A stretch of DNA of 64,000 nt from the IMG/VR virus record IMGVR_UViG_3300032334_000315, positions 32,001 to 96,000 of that record; one strand, given 5' to 3'. The translations under genes were made by a program, and so were the position numbers. Within the stretch, counting starts at the first letter, position 1. Every line of letters begins with the position of its first letter. The stretch is from a virus. Positions 9,108 through 64,000 of the stretch are shown in pieces. The notes under the pieces were generated by a model, which saw only the letters and a program-made list of their open reading frames with translations, was not told the origin of the DNA and did no database searches.

Positions 9108-9136
9108 TACATAATATAGAATTCAATGGGTTGTAA

Positions 9137-9580
9137 TTAGTCGATGTTGATCTTCTTAGGCTTCTGGTTCTCTGGTACGATGTTTTCCAACCACACCTTG
9201 AGAATACCATTCATCAGTCCAACATTGTTTATCACTACGGTATCAGCGAGAGTGAATGTGCGATTGAAGGCACGCTCTGCGATTCCCTTGTAGTAGTAGT
9301 ACTCTTGAGCTTTATCCATATCACTGGAATCTTTAGTGTTACCAGAGATAGTTAGCTTACTTCCATCAAGTATTAACTCGATATCTGTCTTTGCAAATCC
9401 TGCGACAGCCATTTCGATGACGTACTTATTATCATCGACCTTCTTGATATTGTATGGAGGATATCCAGGAAGGTTCTTACCGATACCATCCAACTGCGAA
9501 GATAGCAGCTTGAATGTCTTATCAAAACCGATAGAGAATGGATCAAATGCAGCGAGTTGTGCGTAGTCGTTCTTAGTCAT
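9137..9580 (-). CDS. hsp20: Small heat shock protein (Hsp20/IbpA family)
   Basis: YPPYNI, IEMAVAGF, KGIAERAFNRTFTLAD, NGILKV; start MTKND after AGGAGG. Confidence 0.93.
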   Translation of the reverse strand: MTKNDYAQLAAFDPFSIGFDKTFKLLSSQLDGIGKNLPGYPPYNIKKVDDNKYVIEMAVAGFAKTDIELILDGSKLTISGNTKDSSDMDKAQEYYYYKGIAERAFNRTFTLADTVVINNVGLMNGILKVWLENIVPENQKPKKINID

Positions 9581-9636
9581 AGTATGACCTCCTATTAGGC
9601 AAGGTTGATTATGTGACCCCGAGGGCATCACGGTTT
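9581..9636 (-). promoter_or_regulatory. ROSE-like RNA thermometer in hsp20 5' UTR
   Basis: Two hairpins; the 3' one ACCUUGCCUAAUAGGAGGU pairs UUGC with the SD. Confidence 0.6.
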
Positions 9637-9644
9637 TATTTATA
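9637..9644 (-). promoter_or_regulatory. Late promoter TATAAATA for hsp20
   Basis: Exact consensus just upstream of the leader. Confidence 0.75.
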
Positions 9645-9707
9645 TGTAGCGAAGAAGATATATCCCCAACGCTACACATAAATTCAAGAAGGTAGAAGCT
9701 GCGTCGA

Positions 9708-10118
9708 TCAAGCGACCTTTCCGCGGTTCTTACCGATATTATATTTAGCTTCCAGCTTCCACTCATTCTTCTCCTTGTGCGTGAGAATTTTGATCTGATT
9801 CAATGAAGCGATAGGATCTTCTGAGGCCTTAGGATCAACAAGGTCAATCAACTCCCATTCAGCGAGTAGATTTGCGATCTTATTCCGACGGGCTTTATCG
9901 TCATCAGAGAAGTTGGTTGGCTTACCATCAAGCGCAAATAGTTCCTTGAAGTGGACCACATAGTAGCGGCCCTGCTTGTGGAAGATATGACAAGATTGAT
10001 AGAGTGTGGATTTTTCTGCGGACGCGACACCGATGCGGCTAAGCGTTTCGCGAATCTTTAGGAAATCTTCTGGTGTCTTTAGTCGTACCTCAATCATGGA
10101 TTCAATAATGGATTGCAT
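9708..10118 (-). CDS. regA: Translational repressor RegA
   Basis: DFLKIRETLSRIGVAS, LYQSCHIFHKQGRYYVVHFKELFALDG, KYNIG. Confidence 0.95.
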   Translation of the reverse strand: MQSIIESMIEVRLKTPEDFLKIRETLSRIGVASAEKSTLYQSCHIFHKQGRYYVVHFKELFALDGKPTNFSDDDKARRNKIANLLAEWELIDLVDPKASEDPIASLNQIKILTHKEKNEWKLEAKYNIGKNRGKVA

Positions 10119-10123
10119 TGTGT

Positions 10124-10507
10124 TTACCTTTTGCCAAGTAACGACCTGATCTGGTCTACTTGACTAGGTGTCAATACGGTCAGTGCTTGTTTAGCTTCTG
10201 AACGACCATAGCCGAAGAACTCCATAATCAGGTCGACAGAATCGTTCTTTTCTTCTTTTTGCCACTTGGCAAACTTACGGTTCTGTTTCCTGATTATATT
10301 TATAAAATACTCATACTGCATTAGTTTGTCCAGGTGGCCACGCTGGTTCATCTCGTTGGCATACAGTATGCAGTCTTGGTGGTACGATAACGACCGGTTG
10401 GTAAGAAAAGGCACGTATGCCTTTTCCTGTTCTTCACCATGCCCGCGCATCATATTTGATTGCTTGGGCTTCATAATCGAGTTGACGTAATCGAAAGGAC
10501 TAGTCAT
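10124..10507 (-). CDS. gp62: Clamp loader small subunit
   Basis: PFDYVNSI, YVPFLTNRSLS, ANEMN, RKFAKW; synteny. Confidence 0.9.
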   Translation of the reverse strand: MTSPFDYVNSIMKPKQSNMMRGHGEEQEKAYVPFLTNRSLSYHQDCILYANEMNQRGHLDKLMQYEYFINIIRKQNRKFAKWQKEEKNDSVDLIMEFFGYGRSEAKQALTVLTPSQVDQIRSLLGKR

Positions 10508-11814
10508 AGCGAGCTTTTTGATACGAAGCCCTTGAATGGAGTACCGTCCGCATTTACGACGACCTTCTCAATAAGATCACCATTTGGAGAAATTAACTGC
10601 GGCATAAACCCGTTGAATCGGATTGAACCGGTTTCCATATAATGATTTATGATATCTTCCTTGCTTGCATTTGCGAGGGGATGTGAACTAGGAAATTCAC
10701 ATCCTGATCGTACATTTTCATTATATCGCATCGTTGCCAACACCTTAAGTTTTGCCTTAAAAGCCTTCTCGCACTTCTCTCTTTCGCCTTTGATTCCCTT
10801 TGGATTGTCAAAACAATCTTTAGAATCAACAAAAAGTGTGACATATCGAATTGATCCATCTGTTGGCAACTTGTCACGCAAAACATCGCTTATTCTGACA
10901 TCCTTTGACGCAAACGGTACGTCGAAATGTGAAGTGAACCAAGTAAGATGTGGTCTTGTACCTCTCTTAACATTTTGTCCAGATTCAATAGTCTCAACTG
11001 TGCCGTCAATAGCATCATAAGAACTTCTTTTCAAAGCCTTTTTCATCATCTTCTTAATGTTCGTTTCAGAAAATTTGCCCTGAATCTTATAGAACTTTAA
11101 ATAGCGAGAAAATCCATCTTCAGATGCTTCGAATAGATTACGCTGTACAGCATATATGAAGCCAGATTGAACGTCTATCATTTCTAATGGCTTAGATACA
11201 GTGTGCTGCATATTCGACTCTGTACCATGAGCTTCGAGTGCTTCATAGTTATTATATTTAAAAAGATCGACAAGAGCAAAATTATATTTGCTGTTTTTTG
11301 TTGCAGCAAAAAGCTGCTGTAGGGCCGTAATACGGTGCCTACCAGAAAAAAGCCAATATTTCTTCTTTGAATGTGGATCATCGCGTAAGATTTCTGCCAT
11401 TCGCTTCGCAGGAATTTCTACAACGTACAAACGCTGTTGTGAGTGTATCCATCCATCTTCCGAACCCAAGCTGAGTGAGAGTCTAGCAACATGTGCAGCA
11501 TCAACAGGAATATGTCTTCCGCCAATGTTTTTCTTTGAAGAAAAGAACTCAAGATCAATCTCTTCAAGCGGAATAATTTTCGTGTCGATATATTCCATTG
11601 CGGTCGAATGTACGCCTATAGCCAAGAATCTCTTTTTGGTTTCATCGTCTTGAAACTGAAGTGTATCAGGAAGACTATGAGGCGGACAAAAAGATATTGA
11701 TTTGGCTACATCATAAAGTGGCTTGCTGTTTAGCGAGAAAACATTGTTCTCTGTGCCGAACAAGGCATCTTCAATGGTCTGTAAATTTAAAGCTTTTGTT
11801 TTATGGACTTTCAT
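10504..11814 (-). CDS. Hypothetical protein with ParB/Srx-like motif
   Basis: WLFSGRHRITAL resembles the ParB GxHRxxA motif; 436 aa; has its own promoter. Confidence 0.5.
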   Translation of the reverse strand: MKVHKTKALNLQTIEDALFGTENNVFSLNSKPLYDVAKSISFCPPHSLPDTLQFQDDETKKRFLAIGVHSTAMEYIDTKIIPLEEIDLEFFSSKKNIGGRHIPVDAAHVARLSLSLGSEDGWIHSQQRLYVVEIPAKRMAEILRDDPHSKKKYWLFSGRHRITALQQLFAATKNSKYNFALVDLFKYNNYEALEAHGTESNMQHTVSKPLEMIDVQSGFIYAVQRNLFEASEDGFSRYLKFYKIQGKFSETNIKKMMKKALKRSSYDAIDGTVETIESGQNVKRGTRPHLTWFTSHFDVPFASKDVRISDVLRDKLPTDGSIRYVTLFVDSKDCFDNPKGIKGEREKCEKAFKAKLKVLATMRYNENVRSGCEFPSSHPLANASKEDIINHYMETGSIRFNGFMPQLISPNGDLIEKVVVNADGTPFKGFVSKSSL

Positions 11815-11923
11815 ATTGCACCTTCACTTTGGTTTAATAGACGAGAACGATTCTCAATCTATGGGCATATCATATCAAACTTTTTACGGCTTGTCATTAC
11901 ACTTTTACAATAGGTAAGGTCTA

Positions 11924-12865
11924 CTATTGCTTGAACTCACAATCAATCATAATCTGCGTCATACATGCAGCAAGGTTGATTTCTTGGTCAACAACAAACG
12001 CAGCCTTGTACTGATAGTCAGCCAAAATCAGAATCAACTGTGGTACAGAATTCTGATCTAGGATATCATAAGCGGTATCATACAGAGAACGGAATAGAGT
12101 ATTCACGTCCGCGCTAGAGTTAGTGCCAATCCACTTTCGCATGTTCTCAAACTCGCGGTTCTTCAAACACTTGACAAGTTCGCTGATATTAGTATTATCA
12201 ACCGATGCAAGGATACCAGTGTCAATTTTACCACGCGCAGCATACCTCTGGAACTCATTGAGTACACGCCGCCAATCGGGCAGATGCTTTTTGATTACCT
12301 CTGCGACTGCACCTTTATCATACTCAACATTCTCAGCCTCAAGGATCCAAATGGCTCGCTTCATAAACTCAACAGCAAGACCACCAAGTTGCTTCTTCTG
12401 GATCTTAAAGTCTACAACAGCGCACCGAGAATGTAGTGGTTGGATAATTCGGTTCTTGAAATTGCAGGTGAGAATAAATCCACAGTTACTTGAGAACTCC
12501 TCCATGAAGTTTCTGAGTGCGGGCTGTGTGGAACTAGCGTTGAGGTAATCCGCCTCATCCAAGATAACATACTTACGACCTCCACCAAATGATACGGTAC
12601 CTGCATAGTTGCGAATTTCATTTCGCAGTGTGTCAATGTTACCATTCATTGACCCATTGATAATTAAATAGTCAGCATTGATCTCGTCAAGCATAGCACG
12701 AGCGACCGTTGTCTTACCGACACCAGCAGTGCCAGCAAGCAACAGATTAGGAATGCTGCCGTCGTTTACGAATTGTTGGAATGTTTGCTTCAGGTCATCA
12801 GGTAGAATGCAATCGGCAATCTTATGCGGTCTATAGCGTTCAACCCAAAGGAATTCTTCACGCAT
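11924..12865 (-). CDS. gp44: Clamp loader large subunit
   Basis: WVERYRP, GTAGVGKTT, ILDEADYL, LHSRC. Confidence 0.95.
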   Translation of the reverse strand: MREEFLWVERYRPHKIADCILPDDLKQTFQQFVNDGSIPNLLLAGTAGVGKTTVARAMLDEINADYLIINGSMNGNIDTLRNEIRNYAGTVSFGGGRKYVILDEADYLNASSTQPALRNFMEEFSSNCGFILTCNFKNRIIQPLHSRCAVVDFKIQKKQLGGLAVEFMKRAIWILEAENVEYDKGAVAEVIKKHLPDWRRVLNEFQRYAARGKIDTGILASVDNTNISELVKCLKNREFENMRKWIGTNSSADVNTLFRSLYDTAYDILDQNSVPQLILILADYQYKAAFVVDQEINLAACMTQIMIDCEFKQ

Positions 12866-12875
12866 GTTGGCTCCA

Positions 12876-13334
12876 TCAGTTCCAAGAAGACACAGAATAT
12901 CGCTGAAGGATTTTCTGTTCCTCTTCGGTCATTTCAAAAATTTCACGCATACCATCTTGCTTGATCGGAATAAGAATCATATCGCGACCATCTTTGGTGG
13001 TATACTTATTGTATTGTAACCCATCTTCTGGAAAAATGCAATACACTTTTCCTGCGCTGTAGTGTTTTTCTTTTGCGTTTGGTACAGAAACGAAAATCAA
13101 TCGACAAACATTTTGGCATTTGCGTAATTGATTTGGCTTGATGGTAAATGCATCCTTGTAGACGAATGGTACCTGAGTTTTAATCTCGGCCCATTTACCG
13201 TCTATCAATGCATCTTTGTGGCTGTCATATTGGTCGATAGAAGCTTTGACCTTCATATCTTTTTCACTATACCAATTTAATACGATACTCTCACCTGCGC
13301 GACCGAGCTTCGACTGCTTGCTATCTTGTGTCAT
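12876..13334 (-). CDS. Putative PD-(D/E)XK nuclease
   Basis: LGRAGE helix followed by KD...AEIKTQ. Confidence 0.5.
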   Translation of the reverse strand: MTQDSKQSKLGRAGESIVLNWYSEKDMKVKASIDQYDSHKDALIDGKWAEIKTQVPFVYKDAFTIKPNQLRKCQNVCRLIFVSVPNAKEKHYSAGKVYCIFPEDGLQYNKYTTKDGRDMILIPIKQDGMREIFEMTEEEQKILQRYSVSSWN

Positions 13335-13357
13335 TTCACATATCCATAACGAAAGAT

Positions 13358-13373
13358 GGGGGCTTTCGCCCCC
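13358..13373 (-). terminator. GNRA-tetraloop hairpin after gp45
   Basis: GGGGGC-GAAA-GCCCCC on minus strand. Confidence 0.6.
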
Positions 13374-13378
13374 ACCGA

Positions 13379-14050
13379 TTAGGCATCAAAAGACGAACCA
13401 GATTCCGTTGCGACCCAGTAATGACAGATGCCATCAGTGGATGCAAAGTATGCGATACCCTTTGAAGATACCTTCACATCATAGTCCTTACCACCCATGA
13501 CCTTAAGATTGTCAACCTTGAAGATCATCTTATAGTTCTTCTCAGCCTTTCCTACAGGGCTCTTGAAACGATTCGTGGAATCGCTCCGTGAATCAATAGC
13601 GCAGAAGTATGCGTTACCATGTTCACCGAGAAGAGCAATTTCTGGCAAAGTAAGGAGCGAAGCTTGACGCAATGCTCTTTGAAGCTTCGCTGCTTCCAGA
13701 ACAAAAGCCACATCAACCGAAGGTAGCGTGACTTCCTTGGTAGGAAGGCTGGGAAGAAGCTCTGCCTTTGCACGAACGATATCAGAGATATCACCACTTC
13801 CATTTGAGATGGAAATGAACGTGTCATTGACAGAGATATCAGGATTCTCGTAGTCACTCAGAACGCCAATGAACTGAGAGAGATCAAAGACACCAAATTC
13901 AGTGTCAATGGTATCTTCAATCTTTACCTTAGCGAAGACTGTCTTTTGTGGTGAGACCGTCTTCAATTCAGAACCAGTAGTAAACAACATGCTAGGATTG
14001 ATTGACGCAAAATTCTTTAATACGTCAACCGTAGACTTAGAAATTTTCAT
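13379..14050 (-). CDS. gp45: Sliding clamp
   Basis: MKISKSTVDVLKNFASINPS, FGVFDL, YWVATE. Confidence 0.93.
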   Translation of the reverse strand: MKISKSTVDVLKNFASINPSMLFTTGSELKTVSPQKTVFAKVKIEDTIDTEFGVFDLSQFIGVLSDYENPDISVNDTFISISNGSGDISDIVRAKAELLPSLPTKEVTLPSVDVAFVLEAAKLQRALRQASLLTLPEIALLGEHGNAYFCAIDSRSDSTNRFKSPVGKAEKNYKMIFKVDNLKVMGGKDYDVKVSSKGIAYFASTDGICHYWVATESGSSFDA

Positions 14051-59793: not shown

Positions 59794-60756
59794 ATGATTC
59801 GTTTGATCGTAATGCTCTTTATTGGCTTCATCTCGCTTGCGGCTGCGGCGGCTGAGCTAAAAATAATCACTCCATCCAATGACGATAGCTATAATATCAA
59901 CGCCAGGATTCTATCCAGGCATCTCGGTAAATACTTACCAGACAATCCTACTATAACTATCCAATCCATGCCAGGCGCTGCGAGCTTAGTTGCAGCCAAT
60001 TACATATACAATATTGCGCCGAGAGATGGTAGCGTTATCGGCATTGTCTATAAAGAGATTCCGTTTGTCGGGCTATTAGGCGGTGACGGAGTCCAGTTTG
60101 ATCCTAATCATTTCAACTGGATTGGGTCGGTAGCAGACGGCCGCAAGGATGCTGTTATTCTATGGGCCAATGAACCGAAGTTTCGGTCAGACTTCGTTGT
60201 AGGTGCTGAGGGTGCCACATCAGGCAACATGGCTTTGTTTGTCAACAAAATGCTTGGCACCAATTTCAAGATTGTCGGTGGTTATCCAACGACCGGTGCT
60301 AACCGTCTCGCGCTTGAGCGCAAGGAAGTGGATGCGGTTATCTATAGTTTGATTGGTATCAAAACGCAAAAGCCCAACTGGTTACAGTCAGGCAGCGGCA
60401 TCTATCCAACGCTTCAGTTTGGCAACGGTACGGCCCGTCTACCAGAATATAAAGAAGTTCCAGCACTGGCTGAATATGTAACAGACGACAAAGACAGAAA
60501 GCTCCTTCATGCTTTTGAATCCCAGTTCATAATGTTGCGCCCATTCGTAGCACCGCCTGGCGTGCCAAAAGCTCGCATAGATGAACTACGCAATGCGTTC
60601 TCAAAAGCAATGGTGGATGCTGAGTATGTTGAAGATGCGCGCCGTGCAAACATAGATATTAATGCTATCAGCGGTGCTGATATGGAAACCATGATAAAGA
60701 CTCCAGTAAATATCGAAACGCTCGATAGTCTCAAACAGATTTATAAGGTAAAGTGA
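59794..60756 (+). CDS. Bug/TctC-family periplasmic solute-binding protein
   Basis: Signal peptide; ARILSRHLGKYLP, MPGAASLVAANYIYNIAPRDG, FNWIGS, RPFVAPPGVP. Confidence 0.85.
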   Translation: MIRLIVMLFIGFISLAAAAAELKIITPSNDDSYNINARILSRHLGKYLPDNPTITIQSMPGAASLVAANYIYNIAPRDGSVIGIVYKEIPFVGLLGGDGVQFDPNHFNWIGSVADGRKDAVILWANEPKFRSDFVVGAEGATSGNMALFVNKMLGTNFKIVGGYPTTGANRLALERKEVDAVIYSLIGIKTQKPNWLQSGSGIYPTLQFGNGTARLPEYKEVPALAEYVTDDKDRKLLHAFESQFIMLRPFVAPPGVPKARIDELRNAFSKAMVDAEYVEDARRANIDINAISGADMETMIKTPVNIETLDSLKQIYKVK

Positions 60757-60757
60757 A

Positions 60758-61438
60758 ATGTTCGAACATGCTCTATTTCCTACACTGTTAACCGAATTTG
60801 AATATCCAGAAAAAGATGCGTTCAAAAATGCTTTTTACCAGGGCATCTTCAAGTATATGTCACCCGAAGGATACTCAAGCGAGTTCACTGGCCATGTGAA
60901 TATCCACCATGAACCATCGTTTGAGCCATTCTTCAAGTTTGCTTCAGATTGCGTCAAGCAATATATCGCAAGACTTCACTTGGATCCAAACCTGTTTGAG
61001 TACAATGTGGTCAAAACATGGATGAACATTACTAAAAATCGTATGACACCTATGCACAATCATGCGGACGCGCACATGTCATTTACCTACTACATTAACA
61101 TTCCAAAAGAGTTCTCAAAGCCTATTCGTTTCTTCAACTACAATATGAGACATGAACCGTTCCCAGGTTGTATCAAGTTTAATGATCCATCAAAATGGGA
61201 CGACTTCAATGCATACACATGGCAGATTGAACCACAAGAAGGCAGACTGTTTGTTTTCCCAGCAAATTTGACGCATGACACCGTAGGCCATGAAGAAGAG
61301 AAAGAACCAGGATGCTTCACTCCAGACGATCTGGATCAGATGCGCGTCTGTCTTGCGTGTGATATTCTTCTAACATATAAAAATAAAGCAGCGAAACCAT
61401 TGGGTGTCCAACCTGTGAGTAACTGGAGAATTTTCTGA
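60758..61438 (+). CDS. 2OG-Fe(II) oxygenase (TIGR02466-like)
   Basis: LFPT, WMN, HNHAD, FTYY, VFPANLTH. Confidence 0.75.
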   Translation: MFEHALFPTLLTEFEYPEKDAFKNAFYQGIFKYMSPEGYSSEFTGHVNIHHEPSFEPFFKFASDCVKQYIARLHLDPNLFEYNVVKTWMNITKNRMTPMHNHADAHMSFTYYINIPKEFSKPIRFFNYNMRHEPFPGCIKFNDPSKWDDFNAYTWQIEPQEGRLFVFPANLTHDTVGHEEEKEPGCFTPDDLDQMRVCLACDILLTYKNKAAKPLGVQPVSNWRIF

Positions 61439-62058
61439 TGGCAAAGTATACAACAATTTATAATGATCCATACCGTCGCGCTAAGATTACTTTGCCGTTT
61501 GCATTTTGGGATGGAGCATTCTCAGACGAAGAACTAAAAGCGGTTATTGAGTATTGCGATTCATTCGGTGTCGAACAGAGTACGCTTACTGGCACCACAG
61601 ACATTGAAGAAATTAAAAAGTACCGCGAATCAAAGATTAAGTTTCATGAGCGTAATCAGGACAACGGCTGGATCTTTGACAAACTAAACTTCATCATTCA
61701 GTCTATCAACGAGATGTATTATGGCTTTGATTTGAATGGATATAATGTGTTCCAGTATACCACATATGACGCTGAAGACGAAGGCCGATATGATTGGCAC
61801 ATGGATATGGCAATGGGCCATGAGCAACCTGGTGTGGCTGAAATTCGCAAGCTATCACTCACTCTCCTATTGGACGATGAGTTTGAGGGTGGTGAGTTCC
61901 AGATCAATGGTAGCAATGCACATGAACCTATCATTGCAGAATTGAAAAAAGGACGGGCTATTTTGTTCCCGTCCTTTATGATTCACCGTGTTACGCCAGT
62001 CACAAAAGGCAAGAGGCGATCAATCGTTGTCTGGGTAGTAGGACCAAAGTTCCAGTAA
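61438..62058 (+). CDS. PKHD-type 2OG-Fe(II) oxygenase
   Basis: YDWHMD, RKLSL, FEGGEF, FPSFMIHRVTPVTKGKRRS. Confidence 0.9.
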   Translation: MAKYTTIYNDPYRRAKITLPFAFWDGAFSDEELKAVIEYCDSFGVEQSTLTGTTDIEEIKKYRESKIKFHERNQDNGWIFDKLNFIIQSINEMYYGFDLNGYNVFQYTTYDAEDEGRYDWHMDMAMGHEQPGVAEIRKLSLTLLLDDEFEGGEFQINGSNAHEPIIAELKKGRAILFPSFMIHRVTPVTKGKRRSIVVWVVGPKFQ

Positions 62059-62970
62059 CTACTTCAACACAATGTCTTTTTCATACTTATCGACAATTTT
62101 ATTTATTTTATCAATTTCTTGTTGAATTTTTTCTCGTTCAAAACATCTGAGTTCATGACCAATCTTCTCAAGTAGTTTTATAAAATCAGTCGATCCACAT
62201 ATTTTTGGCAAAAAAATATCAAACGTCTTTACAAATTCAACTCTTTCTTTCGGTACAGAAAATCCGACAGTTGATACAAAATTAAAATCTGGAACACCAA
62301 CATGTTTTCCATTAGGAATATTTGATGCTTCTAAACTAGATGATAAGATTGGTCTCAAGCCTATGATGTCTTGTGGCGAAAATATTGTATAGTCAGCTTC
62401 GTTTACCAATATGCTTTTTGTTATTTCATATGGTGATGTGTAATTTAAATCTTTAGATTTAAAGCCAATCGACTTTAATAAAACAACATTAAGATACGGT
62501 GTTATTGCATTTGTTGTTGTATTCCCAAAGTATACAGTTTTTCCTGAGCTAAAAAGATTTTTTAAATCATTAAACGATTTGATATTTGATTTCGGGTTAA
62601 CGGCAAGATGAAAAGGTGTTCCAGAAAAAGATTGTACTTGAACAACATCACTATTTCGATTATAGGCATTTATATTTGGGCTGGTATATCTACCTAAAGT
62701 GACACCGGATATACCAGACCAAATCAGAACGTCTTCGCCGGCTCTGGCCGCAGATATAGCTCTAAGGGTAGCATTATCTCCACCAGCTCCTGGTATTGAA
62801 GTAAGCCGAAATTGAACATCATTCTGAATAATATTGAGTTGAGATATTACTTCTGTCCCTACAAGCATTCCAACACTGCCTGGGGTAAACATCGAGTAAA
62901 CATTTACTTCTTTTGCCATAGCACAATTTGACAATAGTAAAAAAAATAATGCAAACATTTTATTAAACAT
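62059..62970 (-). CDS. Divergent Bug/TctC-like solute-binding protein
   Basis: Signal peptide ending AMA; IPGAGG, IKSFNDL; ~300 aa; AT-rich. Confidence 0.6.
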   Translation of the reverse strand: MFNKMFALFFLLLSNCAMAKEVNVYSMFTPGSVGMLVGTEVISQLNIIQNDVQFRLTSIPGAGGDNATLRAISAARAGEDVLIWSGISGVTLGRYTSPNINAYNRNSDVVQVQSFSGTPFHLAVNPKSNIKSFNDLKNLFSSGKTVYFGNTTTNAITPYLNVVLLKSIGFKSKDLNYTSPYEITKSILVNEADYTIFSPQDIIGLRPILSSSLEASNIPNGKHVGVPDFNFVSTVGFSVPKERVEFVKTFDIFLPKICGSTDFIKLLEKIGHELRCFEREKIQQEIDKINKIVDKYEKDIVLK

Positions 62971-62982
62971 AATAAAATTTCC

Positions 62983-64000
62983 TTAAAATTCTGGCTTAAA
63001 TTGTCCGAGATAATAAAGTCTAGAAAATAGAGTCTTATTCAAGTTTGATTTGTTTGCTATTTTATCATATTTTTTCCATTTGTGCGATTGATAATCAGCA
63101 TAAAAATCATGCGCCGTATGAGATATACCAATAGTTTCTACCAACTTTATATCGGGACTTATTTTTGTTGGTTTAGAGCCAACAAAAATATTTGGATCCC
63201 AATCCGGATAAATGATTGTATTATACCATCTATCTAAAATAAAACCTGGTGGACATTTTATTTTTGGATCAGACAATGCGTTTTTTACCACATTTCGTAT
63301 GTACATCCACTCATTATATAATTTTTTACTTTTTGCCAATTTATCAATAATTACTTGACACTGTTTTACCGGTATCATTGGAAAATCTGGTGACCAGTAA
63401 AAATCTTCGACTGTATATGGAGCACCTTCTTTTTGAAGAGATACTCCGATATTTGCGAGAGTGATATCGGAAAACAAAAAGAAAATTTTACCATCGTCGG
63501 TAATGTCAATAATGGGTTTTTCGAGGCCTCTGATAACAGCTACATTTTCTTTTGTTATAGACTGTCTTTCGTGTTTAATTAAAAGTGGTGACCAATTTTT
63601 TCCTACACCTCCTGTAACCCATCTAAGTGACCTAGGTTCATCGTTATGACCAAGATACTCATATTTTTTTCCACCTATTTGCGTGATTAAATTTTCCGAC
63701 GAATCAATCAATGTAATTTTAGTGTTTGGACTATATTTTTTAATTTTATTTAACTGTGGTATAACGGCCATCTCAAATTCCATAAACTCGGTGAGATCCT
63801 CGTCATTAAGCAATATGCTACGATCCAATCTATTAATCGCTCTCTGGTGATGAACAATAACGATCTCATCTAAAAAAATATTATTTTTAAGAAAAGTTTC
63901 CAAAACTTGTGTTGAATCGCTACCTCCGGAATATCTTAAAATTAGATATCGGTATTTATCACGCAACTGTTGGGCGCGATCTCTATACAGGACCGATATG
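62983..64000 (-). CDS. PP-loop (adenine nucleotide alpha-hydrolase) family protein, start beyond window
   Basis: RAQQLRDKYRYLILRYSGGSDS PP-loop; frame is open to the window edge; GLEKP, EDFYWSPD. Confidence 0.7.
   Translation of the reverse strand, partial: ISVLYRDRAQQLRDKYRYLILRYSGGSDSTQVLETFLKNNIFLDEIVIVHHQRAINRLDRSILLNDEDLTEFMEFEMAVIPQLNKIKKYSPNTKITLIDSSENLITQIGGKKYEYLGHNDEPRSLRWVTGGVGKNWSPLLIKHERQSITKENVAVIRGLEKPIIDITDDGKIFFLFSDITLANIGVSLQKEGAPYTVEDFYWSPDFPMIPVKQCQVIIDKLAKSKKLYNEWMYIRNVVKNALSDPKIKCPPGFILDRWYNTIIYPDWDPNIFVGSKPTKISPDIKLVETIGISHTAHDFYADYQSHKWKKYDKIANKSNLNKTLFSRLYYLGQFKPEF

Follow-up and report, generated by a model that had tools for sequence, protein, structure and literature searches.

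The stretch analysed here (the window; 64,000 nucleotides, bases 32001-96000 of the 154,689-bp viral record IMGVR_UViG_3300032334_000315, GC content 43.3%) belongs to an uncultured T4-like phage. Its last four kilobases are the near end of a composite accessory island, in a hypervariable region between the neck and tail-fibre genes. The core of this island is a modular three-gene unit made up of a small protein, a virus-only PP-loop enzyme and an exported binding protein of the TctC fold. The parts are of known kinds; what is new is their combination, a phage enzyme joined to a TctC or DctP binding-protein module. The best reading of the unit, put forward tentatively, is uptake of an acid through the TctAB carrier of the host, followed by adenylation and amidation in the cytoplasm.

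Nearly all genes of the window lie on the minus strand. The only convincing plus-strand genes form a tight operon, SBP1-ox1-ox2, which meets the minus-strand genes SBP2 and PP1 stop codon to stop codon. An earlier note on this DNA had described these five open reading frames (ORFs) as a convergent phage island, and the genes, their coordinates and their convergence were all confirmed. The island runs on beyond base 64000 and was followed in a 20-kb locus (L001, genome 90001-110000; window coordinate = L001 coordinate + 58000). Its genes are as follows.

59794-60756, plus strand: SBP1, exported, highly diverged TctC-fold binding protein, 320 aa; first gene of the three-gene operon.
60758-61438, plus strand: ox1, 2-oxoglutarate (2OG)-Fe(II) oxygenase, 226 aa (PF13759, 2OG-FeII_Oxy_5, E 1.2e-11; phrog_81, E 9e-26).
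61438-62058, plus strand: ox2, prolyl-hydroxylase-like 2OG-Fe(II) oxygenase, 206 aa (PF13640, 2OG-FeII_Oxy_3, E 1.9e-14; phrog_61, E 4e-31); its start overlaps the ox1 stop.
62059-62970, minus strand: SBP2, exported binding protein of predicted TctC fold, 303 aa; downstream partner of PP1.
62983-64000 and on to window-equivalent 64185 (L001:4983-6185), minus strand: PP1, PP-loop enzyme with motif SGGSDS, 400 aa; the C-terminal 338 of its 400 codons lie inside the window and the start codon is at window-equivalent 64185 (L001:6185).
Directly upstream of PP1, same (minus) strand: o156, 144 aa.
Divergent from o156: PP2, 43% identical to PP1, with SBP3 immediately downstream.
After PP2, just beyond the window end: SBP3, TctC-fold binding protein, 34% identical to SBP2.
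After SBP3: o266, a PP-loop protein of 266 aa.
After o266: a gene of the fatty-acid-hydroxylase family.
After the hydroxylase-family gene: PP4 (fourth paralogue), then the small gene o143; fibre-like genes are next.

The o156-PP1-SBP2 unit on the minus strand and the PP2-SBP3 unit, which lies shortly beyond base 64000, face each other. In total the genome encodes three exported TctC-fold proteins, five PP-loop paralogues, two 2OG oxygenases and one fatty-acid-hydroxylase-like protein. The earlier note had counted two Bug/TctC proteins; the exported TctC fold was borne out and the count was not, and both in-window proteins fail the Pfam cut-off. Its observation that no TctA or TctB is in view extends to the entire record (93% complete by CheckV), in which no TctA, TctB or DctP gene was found, though TctA and TctB are present in the loci of some relatives. 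PADLOC models gave no match for the five PP-loop paralogues, the three binding proteins or o156.

The S-G-G-x-D-S motif is invariant in all five paralogues and in a 66-sequence alignment of the enzyme family. PP1 itself has no Pfam, NCBIfam, PHROG, PADLOC or PDB-sequence match, even with the 66-sequence profile, for which the PDB returned chance matches only. Its AlphaFold model scored highly (predicted local distance difference test, pLDDT, 94; predicted template-modelling score, pTM, 0.92), and searches with Foldseek and VIA-align placed only PP-loop enzymes in the top ranks (GMP synthetase, NAD synthetase, LarE, AsnB). By VIA-align the closest was Escherichia coli AsnB (1ct9; Z 11.5, root-mean-square deviation 5.2, 289 residues aligned), followed by human ASNS (Z 11.1), beta-lactam synthetase (1jgt, 10.0), TsnB9 (7ylz, 8.9) and carbapenam synthetase (1q15, 8.3), with the remaining PP-loop classes at Z ~7. 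Each of these five enzymes activates a carboxylate by adenylation and then makes an amide or lactam from it. With them PP1 has in common the PP-loop SGGxDS and a structural match of ~290 residues (Z 8-11.5), and the AsnB-type synthetase-domain architecture, including the C-terminal helical part, is present in the model. On this structural evidence PP1 is asparagine-synthetase-like, as had been proposed from the letters alone, and closest to the carboxylate-adenylating, amide-forming branch of the PP-loop superfamily; the chemistry to be expected would be ATP-dependent carboxylate adenylation followed by amide or lactam formation.

Unlike AsnB, PP1 has no N-terminal glutaminase domain and no detectable sequence similarity to it, and its family is almost only viral. 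A glutaminase domain with its catalytic Cys is missing from a protein of 400 aa in which the PP-loop motif already occurs at residue 86, leaving an N-terminal remnant of roughly 60 residues; the protein has no GATase or Asn_synthase Pfam match. The nitrogen donor would therefore be ammonia or an amine. A library of 1.8 billion proteins contained 1,762 clusters of the PP1 family at 50% identity, 892 of them at E<=1e-30, and the nearest ESM Atlas clusters were 99-100% viral. At least 413 loci in IMG/VR encode the family. The 185,579 bacterial and archaeal species genomes searched yielded three weak loci, each from a metagenome-assembled genome and two on short contigs (2-3 kb), which leaves no bacterial gene context to guide a functional reading; 50,697 GenBank phage records yielded no match. 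The family is thus almost purely viral, and it is among the larger viral protein families without a database model. Natural fusions of 677-689 aa were found among metagenome proteins (P0021, P0044, P0050, P0054), in which an o266-type PP-loop domain lies N-terminal to a PP1-type enzyme, suggesting that the two types of paralogue work together.

SBP2 has no Pfam match. Its AlphaFold2 model (pLDDT 93) was compared with the PDB by Foldseek, and the top 13 entries were all binding proteins of tripartite tricarboxylate transporters (TTT), at TM scores of 0.71-0.78, with AdpC, BugE, BugD, TphC, TBP, MatC and Bug27 at the top (0.72-0.78). As modelled, SBP2 has the two-domain type II fold of the Bug family. 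SBP3 scores 44.4 bits, above the Pfam TctC (PF03401) cut-off, and matched solved TTT proteins at E 8e-11. SBP1, at 16.5 bits, falls under the cut-off of 27, and its family profile retrieved nothing from the PDB. The same profile, built from 12 relatives, can be aligned along its whole length with that of the phage TctC-like proteins (hhalign probability 99.4%, 289 columns), and by this comparison SBP1 is a diverged member of the TctC-like family. SBP1 and SBP2 both start with classical signal peptides, that of SBP2 ending after AMA and before KE, and signal-peptide-like N-termini (judged by eye) were present in all TctC-like proteins of the 80 loci surveyed below. The cysteine pair C258/C276 of SBP2 is kept in 28 of 46 relatives.

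In fold, signal peptide and the usual lack of an adjoining TctAB, these proteins resemble the bacterial orphan Bug/TctC proteins (BugD, BugE, AdpC, TphC, MatC). In many bacteria it is normal for orphan Bug proteins to depend on a TctAB encoded far away; their genes too adjoin enzymes acting on the presumed ligand, and where TTT receptor genes lie next to enzymes, this has been interpreted as importing the carboxylated substrates of those enzymes (PMC5812351). Unlike bacterial Bug proteins, those studied here are phage-encoded, are at most ~27% identical to bacterial members, do not carry the TTT signature loop and have a PP-loop enzyme as constant neighbour.

The constancy of this neighbour was surveyed in 80 of the at least 413 viral loci in IMG/VR, with adjacency counted on 78 loci by means of our own hidden Markov models. 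The immediate neighbour was a TctC-like or DctP-like gene for 60 of the 123 PP-loop genes (on the same strand in 56 of the 60), and at least one such gene was present in 61 of the 78 loci. When gene order was shuffled 1000 times within loci, the count averaged 17.4 and never exceeded 30; the observed 60 is 3.4 times the mean, a ratio that is not to be read as a probability, the surveyed loci being interrelated. The co-occurrence of PP-loop and Bug genes across phages, on which the earlier note had made its proposal depend, is therefore real. Within the 25 closest loci the gene order is syntenic (o454, o143, PP4, hydroxylase, o266, PP, binding protein, ox2, ox1, SBP1, neck genes), and PP1/PP2-type and SBP2/SBP3-type genes are neighbours on one strand, whichever of them comes first. 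The pairing also recurs on independent ENA scaffolds, including one of 167.7 kb with the same cassette.

In more distant loci the neighbour of the PP-loop gene is of two further types: a different TctC subfamily with signal peptide (Pfam E 2e-10), or a DctP-family binding protein of the tripartite ATP-independent periplasmic (TRAP) class (Pfam E 1e-48), the latter uniformly without a signal peptide. The association thus spans two unrelated binding-protein families and many contexts. The TctC and DctP families both bind organic acids, and steady pairing with both offers a concrete, testable handle on the function of the enzyme. The canonical carboxylate-binding arginine, to which a ligand-binding role is given in DctP-type proteins (PMC5812351), is kept in 21 of 26 DctP-like partners. 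No fusion of enzyme and binding protein was present among the 150 best PP1-family members. A complex prediction for PP1 and mature SBP2 scored 0.00 and was counted neither for nor against the pairing. Searches of the literature on TctC/TTT in phages and on asparagine-synthetase-like enzymes with binding proteins turned up no description of a phage module of this composition.

Moreover, the pairs behave as mobile units. The GC contents of SBP2 (0.327) and PP1 (0.328) compare with 0.433 for the genome, and a low-GC block (0.33-0.37) comprising SBP2, PP1, o156, PP2, SBP3 and o266 extends from window 62059 to L001:9580. The viral contig L003 is collinear with L001, at ~85% DNA identity, up to the ox2 stop codon, and collinearity resumes in o156. 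The intervening 2.1 kb with SBP2 and PP1 has no collinear counterpart in L003 and is an insertion relative to both L002 and L003. The flanks of the low-GC block are about 85% and 74% identical to L003, with the core replaced or inserted, and the block behaves as a recombination hot spot. PP1-SBP2 is thus a low-GC two-gene insertion with no counterpart in the closest relatives. Distances between enzymes and between their partners are correlated over 45 non-identical pairs (Mantel Spearman 0.79, reached by 0 of 999 permutations), a correlation that shared descent alone can yield. Where a genome has two pairs, each enzyme matches the same cognate pair elsewhere as does its own partner; PP1 and SBP2, for instance, are 62% and 49% identical to the second pair of L090. 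This pattern of paralogues shows that duplication and transfer involve the enzyme-partner pair and not single genes.

TTT systems are importers. Some relatives carry membrane components of such a system in an operon with the enzyme:

L045:2799-5035 and 9108-13713, and L057:9974-13626: phage-encoded TctA (three genes) and TctB in an operon with the PP-loop enzyme.

The order in L045 is TctC-like, PP, a 203-aa gene, TctB and TctA, with a second TctA-TctC pair 5 kb away; that in L057 is PP, DctP-like and TctA. Together with import as the direction of TTT systems, the orphan state that is normal for Bug proteins, the precedent of receptor genes beside enzymes and the carboxylate-activating class of the enzyme make import followed by amidation the best-supported reading. 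The folds, the export signals, the linkage of the genes, the joint transfer of pairs and the lack of a transporter in this genome are observations; the kind of ligand, the way in which it is transported and the reaction performed on it are inferred. In this proposal the binding protein would be secreted to the host periplasm and capture a small organic acid or acid-like compound, which it would hand to a TctAB-type membrane carrier, that of the host in this phage and the phage's own in a few relatives. The cytoplasmic PP-loop enzyme would then activate the carboxyl of the imported compound with ATP, giving an acyl-adenylate, and close an amide bond with ammonia or an amine, so that the compound would be trapped or converted for the phage. 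The PstS-type auxiliary genes of cyanophages provide a parallel, as they encode a periplasmic binding protein that feeds a host transporter, the phage supplying only the soluble receptor of a host uptake system. Unlike these, the present units belong to another transporter family, include a cognate cytoplasmic enzyme, occur in several diverging copies and lie in the structural region. If the pairs do import and trap specific organic acids, they would add a new class to the auxiliary metabolic modules of aquatic phages.

Several observations weigh against import followed by amidation. TctA was found in four of 50 viral records carrying the PP-loop enzyme, most of them fragments; the majority of such records, including two near-complete jumbo genomes, are without it. 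The near-universal TTT signature loop P-F-x-A-G-G-x-x-D holds the waters that bind the carboxylate of the ligand (PMC5812351). Searched as a loose pattern, this loop is absent from SBP1, SBP2 and SBP3 and from their subfamilies (0/24 and 0/13), while another phage TctC subfamily has it in 8 of 27 members; the three proteins may therefore bind something other than an ordinary carboxylate. In related phages the DctP-like partners (L034:12805-13755, L038, L058, L064 and others) have no signal peptide, and at least those would act in the cytoplasm and not as periplasmic receptors. The island lies in a structural, host-recognition region. Finally, a CTAAATAG box precedes the o156-PP1-SBP2 unit, as it does the neck gene, which hints that the unit is expressed late, when the uptake of nutrients would be surprising. 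This box is ~ten-fold enriched upstream of genes genome-wide (12 of 28 sites in ~4% of sequence space). Of the exact T4 late box TATAAATA the 20-kb locus has a single copy, ahead of a fibre gene, and scans of the locus for sigma-70 promoters and terminators gave background levels only.

The location of the island has a known parallel. Homologues of T4 gp13, gp14 and gp15 are its next-door neighbours, which bears out the phage origin assigned from the sequence: the gp15 homologue (PF16724, E 4e-71), the T4 neck protein and a head-tail adaptor adjoin the island upstream (Pfam and PHROG scans), and tail-fibre-like genes and an ORF of ~1,940 aa lie on its far side. In pelagimyophages and cyanomyophages, the region that adjoins the neck gene gp14 and precedes the tail fibres forms a 'host recognition cluster', which is hypervariable and has many envelope-modifying genes (PMC7029224). 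The island occupies this very position and, like the cluster, is hypervariable and combines fibre genes with enzymes; a transfer-messenger RNA (tmRNA), present in this phage, is also given for the group of PMC7029224. Glycosyltransferases and radical SAM cassettes are described for that cluster, and PP-loop enzymes and TctC are unmentioned there. A second cluster, 85 kb from the island, contains the fifth PP-loop paralogue and looks like an envelope-directed cluster (L082:7166-12031; L082 coordinates equal genome coordinates):

L082:7166-8620, minus strand: radical SAM-SPASM gene.
L082:8756-9898, minus strand: PP3.
L082:9898-10443, minus strand: outer-membrane beta-barrel gene.
L082:11054-12031, minus strand: capsule-polysaccharide-synthesis-family gene.

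These settings suggest a different role, in which the PP-loop enzymes amidate or ligate a carboxyl on a component of the host envelope (a glycan, lipid or peptidoglycan precursor) or on a phage fibre protein. We regard this as somewhat unlikely, and with the same reserve its second part, that the exported TctC-fold proteins bind, mask or deliver on the same structure and thereby change host recognition or block superinfection. Decoration of this kind would suit the place of the island between neck and tail-fibre-like genes, the late-type box ahead of the unit and the company of PP3. It would also suit binding proteins that have no canonical carboxylate loop, and the ~85%-identical flanks around a swapped or inserted PP-SBP core resemble the hot-swapping of fibre tips. 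Against it, some relatives have TctB and TctA genes in one operon with the enzyme, PP-SBP pairs are also found at a distance from structural genes (by RecA-like and radical SAM genes, for instance), and no glycosyltransferase or fibre gene consistently adjoins them across the 80 loci. Were the pairs to decorate fibres or the host envelope, they would provide a new route to host-range change. Under this reading as under import, the soluble binding proteins could be used for ligand fishing. A virus-specific system of capture and ligation, in which each cognate pair of an amide ligase and an exported or cytoplasmic binding protein recognises one acid and couples it to an amine acceptor on the phage fibre or host envelope, we consider unlikely; if true, the swapping of pairs would re-tune host recognition or the exclusion of rival phages, as the swapping of fibre tips does.

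The earlier note had favoured a system that makes a small molecule and senses or sequesters it. Here the amide or cyclised product of the PP-loop enzyme would leave the cell and be bound by the cognate exported protein, as a signal or to withhold it. Such a system would explain why enzyme and binding protein co-diverge as cognate pairs and why this genome has no transporter genes, and there is a precedent in the Bug-family protein BctC, whose gene adjoins a two-component system responding to its ligand (PMC5812351). Pfam scans, however, revealed no exporter, sensor kinase or precursor-peptide machinery in the cassette, and cytoplasmic DctP-like partners would misfit an extracellular signal. 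TTT systems work as importers, and where phages encode membrane parts these are TctA and TctB; their presence in an operon with the enzyme favours import and tailoring over making and sensing. We therefore do not favour the proposal and judge it distinctly unlikely.

Very improbable is a pathway like that of ribosomally synthesised and post-translationally modified peptides (RiPPs), in which the enzymes would cyclise or amidate a gene-encoded peptide or small upstream protein, with radical SAM-SPASM enzymes and oxygenases as tailors. Lasso-peptide cyclases are homologues of asparagine synthetase. They belong to the same branch of the enzyme superfamily as PP1, and both have small ORFs upstream: a small gene lies ahead of 44 of the 123 PP-loop genes, with the o156 family conserved in this position at PP1-type genes. 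Radical SAM-SPASM genes adjoin PP3 here and PP-loop genes elsewhere. Unlike lasso clusters, the cassette ORFs include no leader peptidase or PqqD-like recognition protein by Pfam scans, and the small upstream proteins are too long (125-185 aa) and non-homologous between subfamilies (the best comparison, c43 against c190, gave 6.8% probability). Moreover, a RiPP cluster has no need of a binding protein, yet this is the constant partner here.

That the genes are independent morons, unrelated cargo merely side by side, is hardly credible: two oxygenases widespread without the other genes and the GC gap between the plus-strand trio (0.41-0.46) and the PP-SBP block would agree with it, but adjacency exceeds all 1000 shuffles, holds for two different binding-protein families and on independent assemblies, and the members of a pair are transferred and diverge jointly. 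For the PP-SBP pairs this contradicts independent cargo, which is plausible for the link of these pairs to the oxygenases.

Both oxygenases pass the Pfam cut-off of 27 bits (ox1, PF13759, 45.4; ox2, PF13640, 54.8), in agreement with the earlier assignment, and both belong to ordinary cyanophage-type families. Homologues of ox1 at ~30% identity occur in phages of Prochlorococcus, Synechococcus and Pelagibacter, and those of ox2 in 364 GenBank phage records, mostly of cyanophages. Since these families are common in cyanophages and pelagiphages that have no PP-loop enzyme or binding-protein genes, the island is composite, and SBP1 with the two oxygenases is a separate, neighbouring operon. SBP1 is syntenic with ox1 and ox2 in most of the related loci that have it, and the SBP1-ox1-ox2 operon may tailor the same compound or another. 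Related islands (L004, L006, L024, L026, L038, L041, L081) often add tryptophan-halogenase-like flavoproteins, Rieske oxygenases, radical SAM enzymes and DUF2061 membrane proteins, an oxidative tailoring set.

When GenBank phages were searched at the DNA and protein levels, the region, PP1, PP3 and SBP3 all stayed unmatched, so there is no cultured relative from which annotation could be transferred. The gp15 homologue reached only ~40% identity with GenBank phages, the nearest being a Stenotrophomonas phage and the Methylophilales phage Melnitz. The host is probably an alphaproteobacterium. The RNA genes below, found with ARAGORN, fit such a host without being proof of it.

L088:3301-3690 (genome 139301-139690), minus strand: permuted (two-piece) tmRNA with tag peptide ANDNAPISYALAA, adjoining tRNA-Gln.
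L082:75-4479 and 10557-10631 (genome coordinates): array of 20 tRNA genes.

Within the array, one tRNA has the amber-reading anticodon CTA (labelled Pyl by ARAGORN) and one the opal-reading anticodon TCA (labelled SeC).

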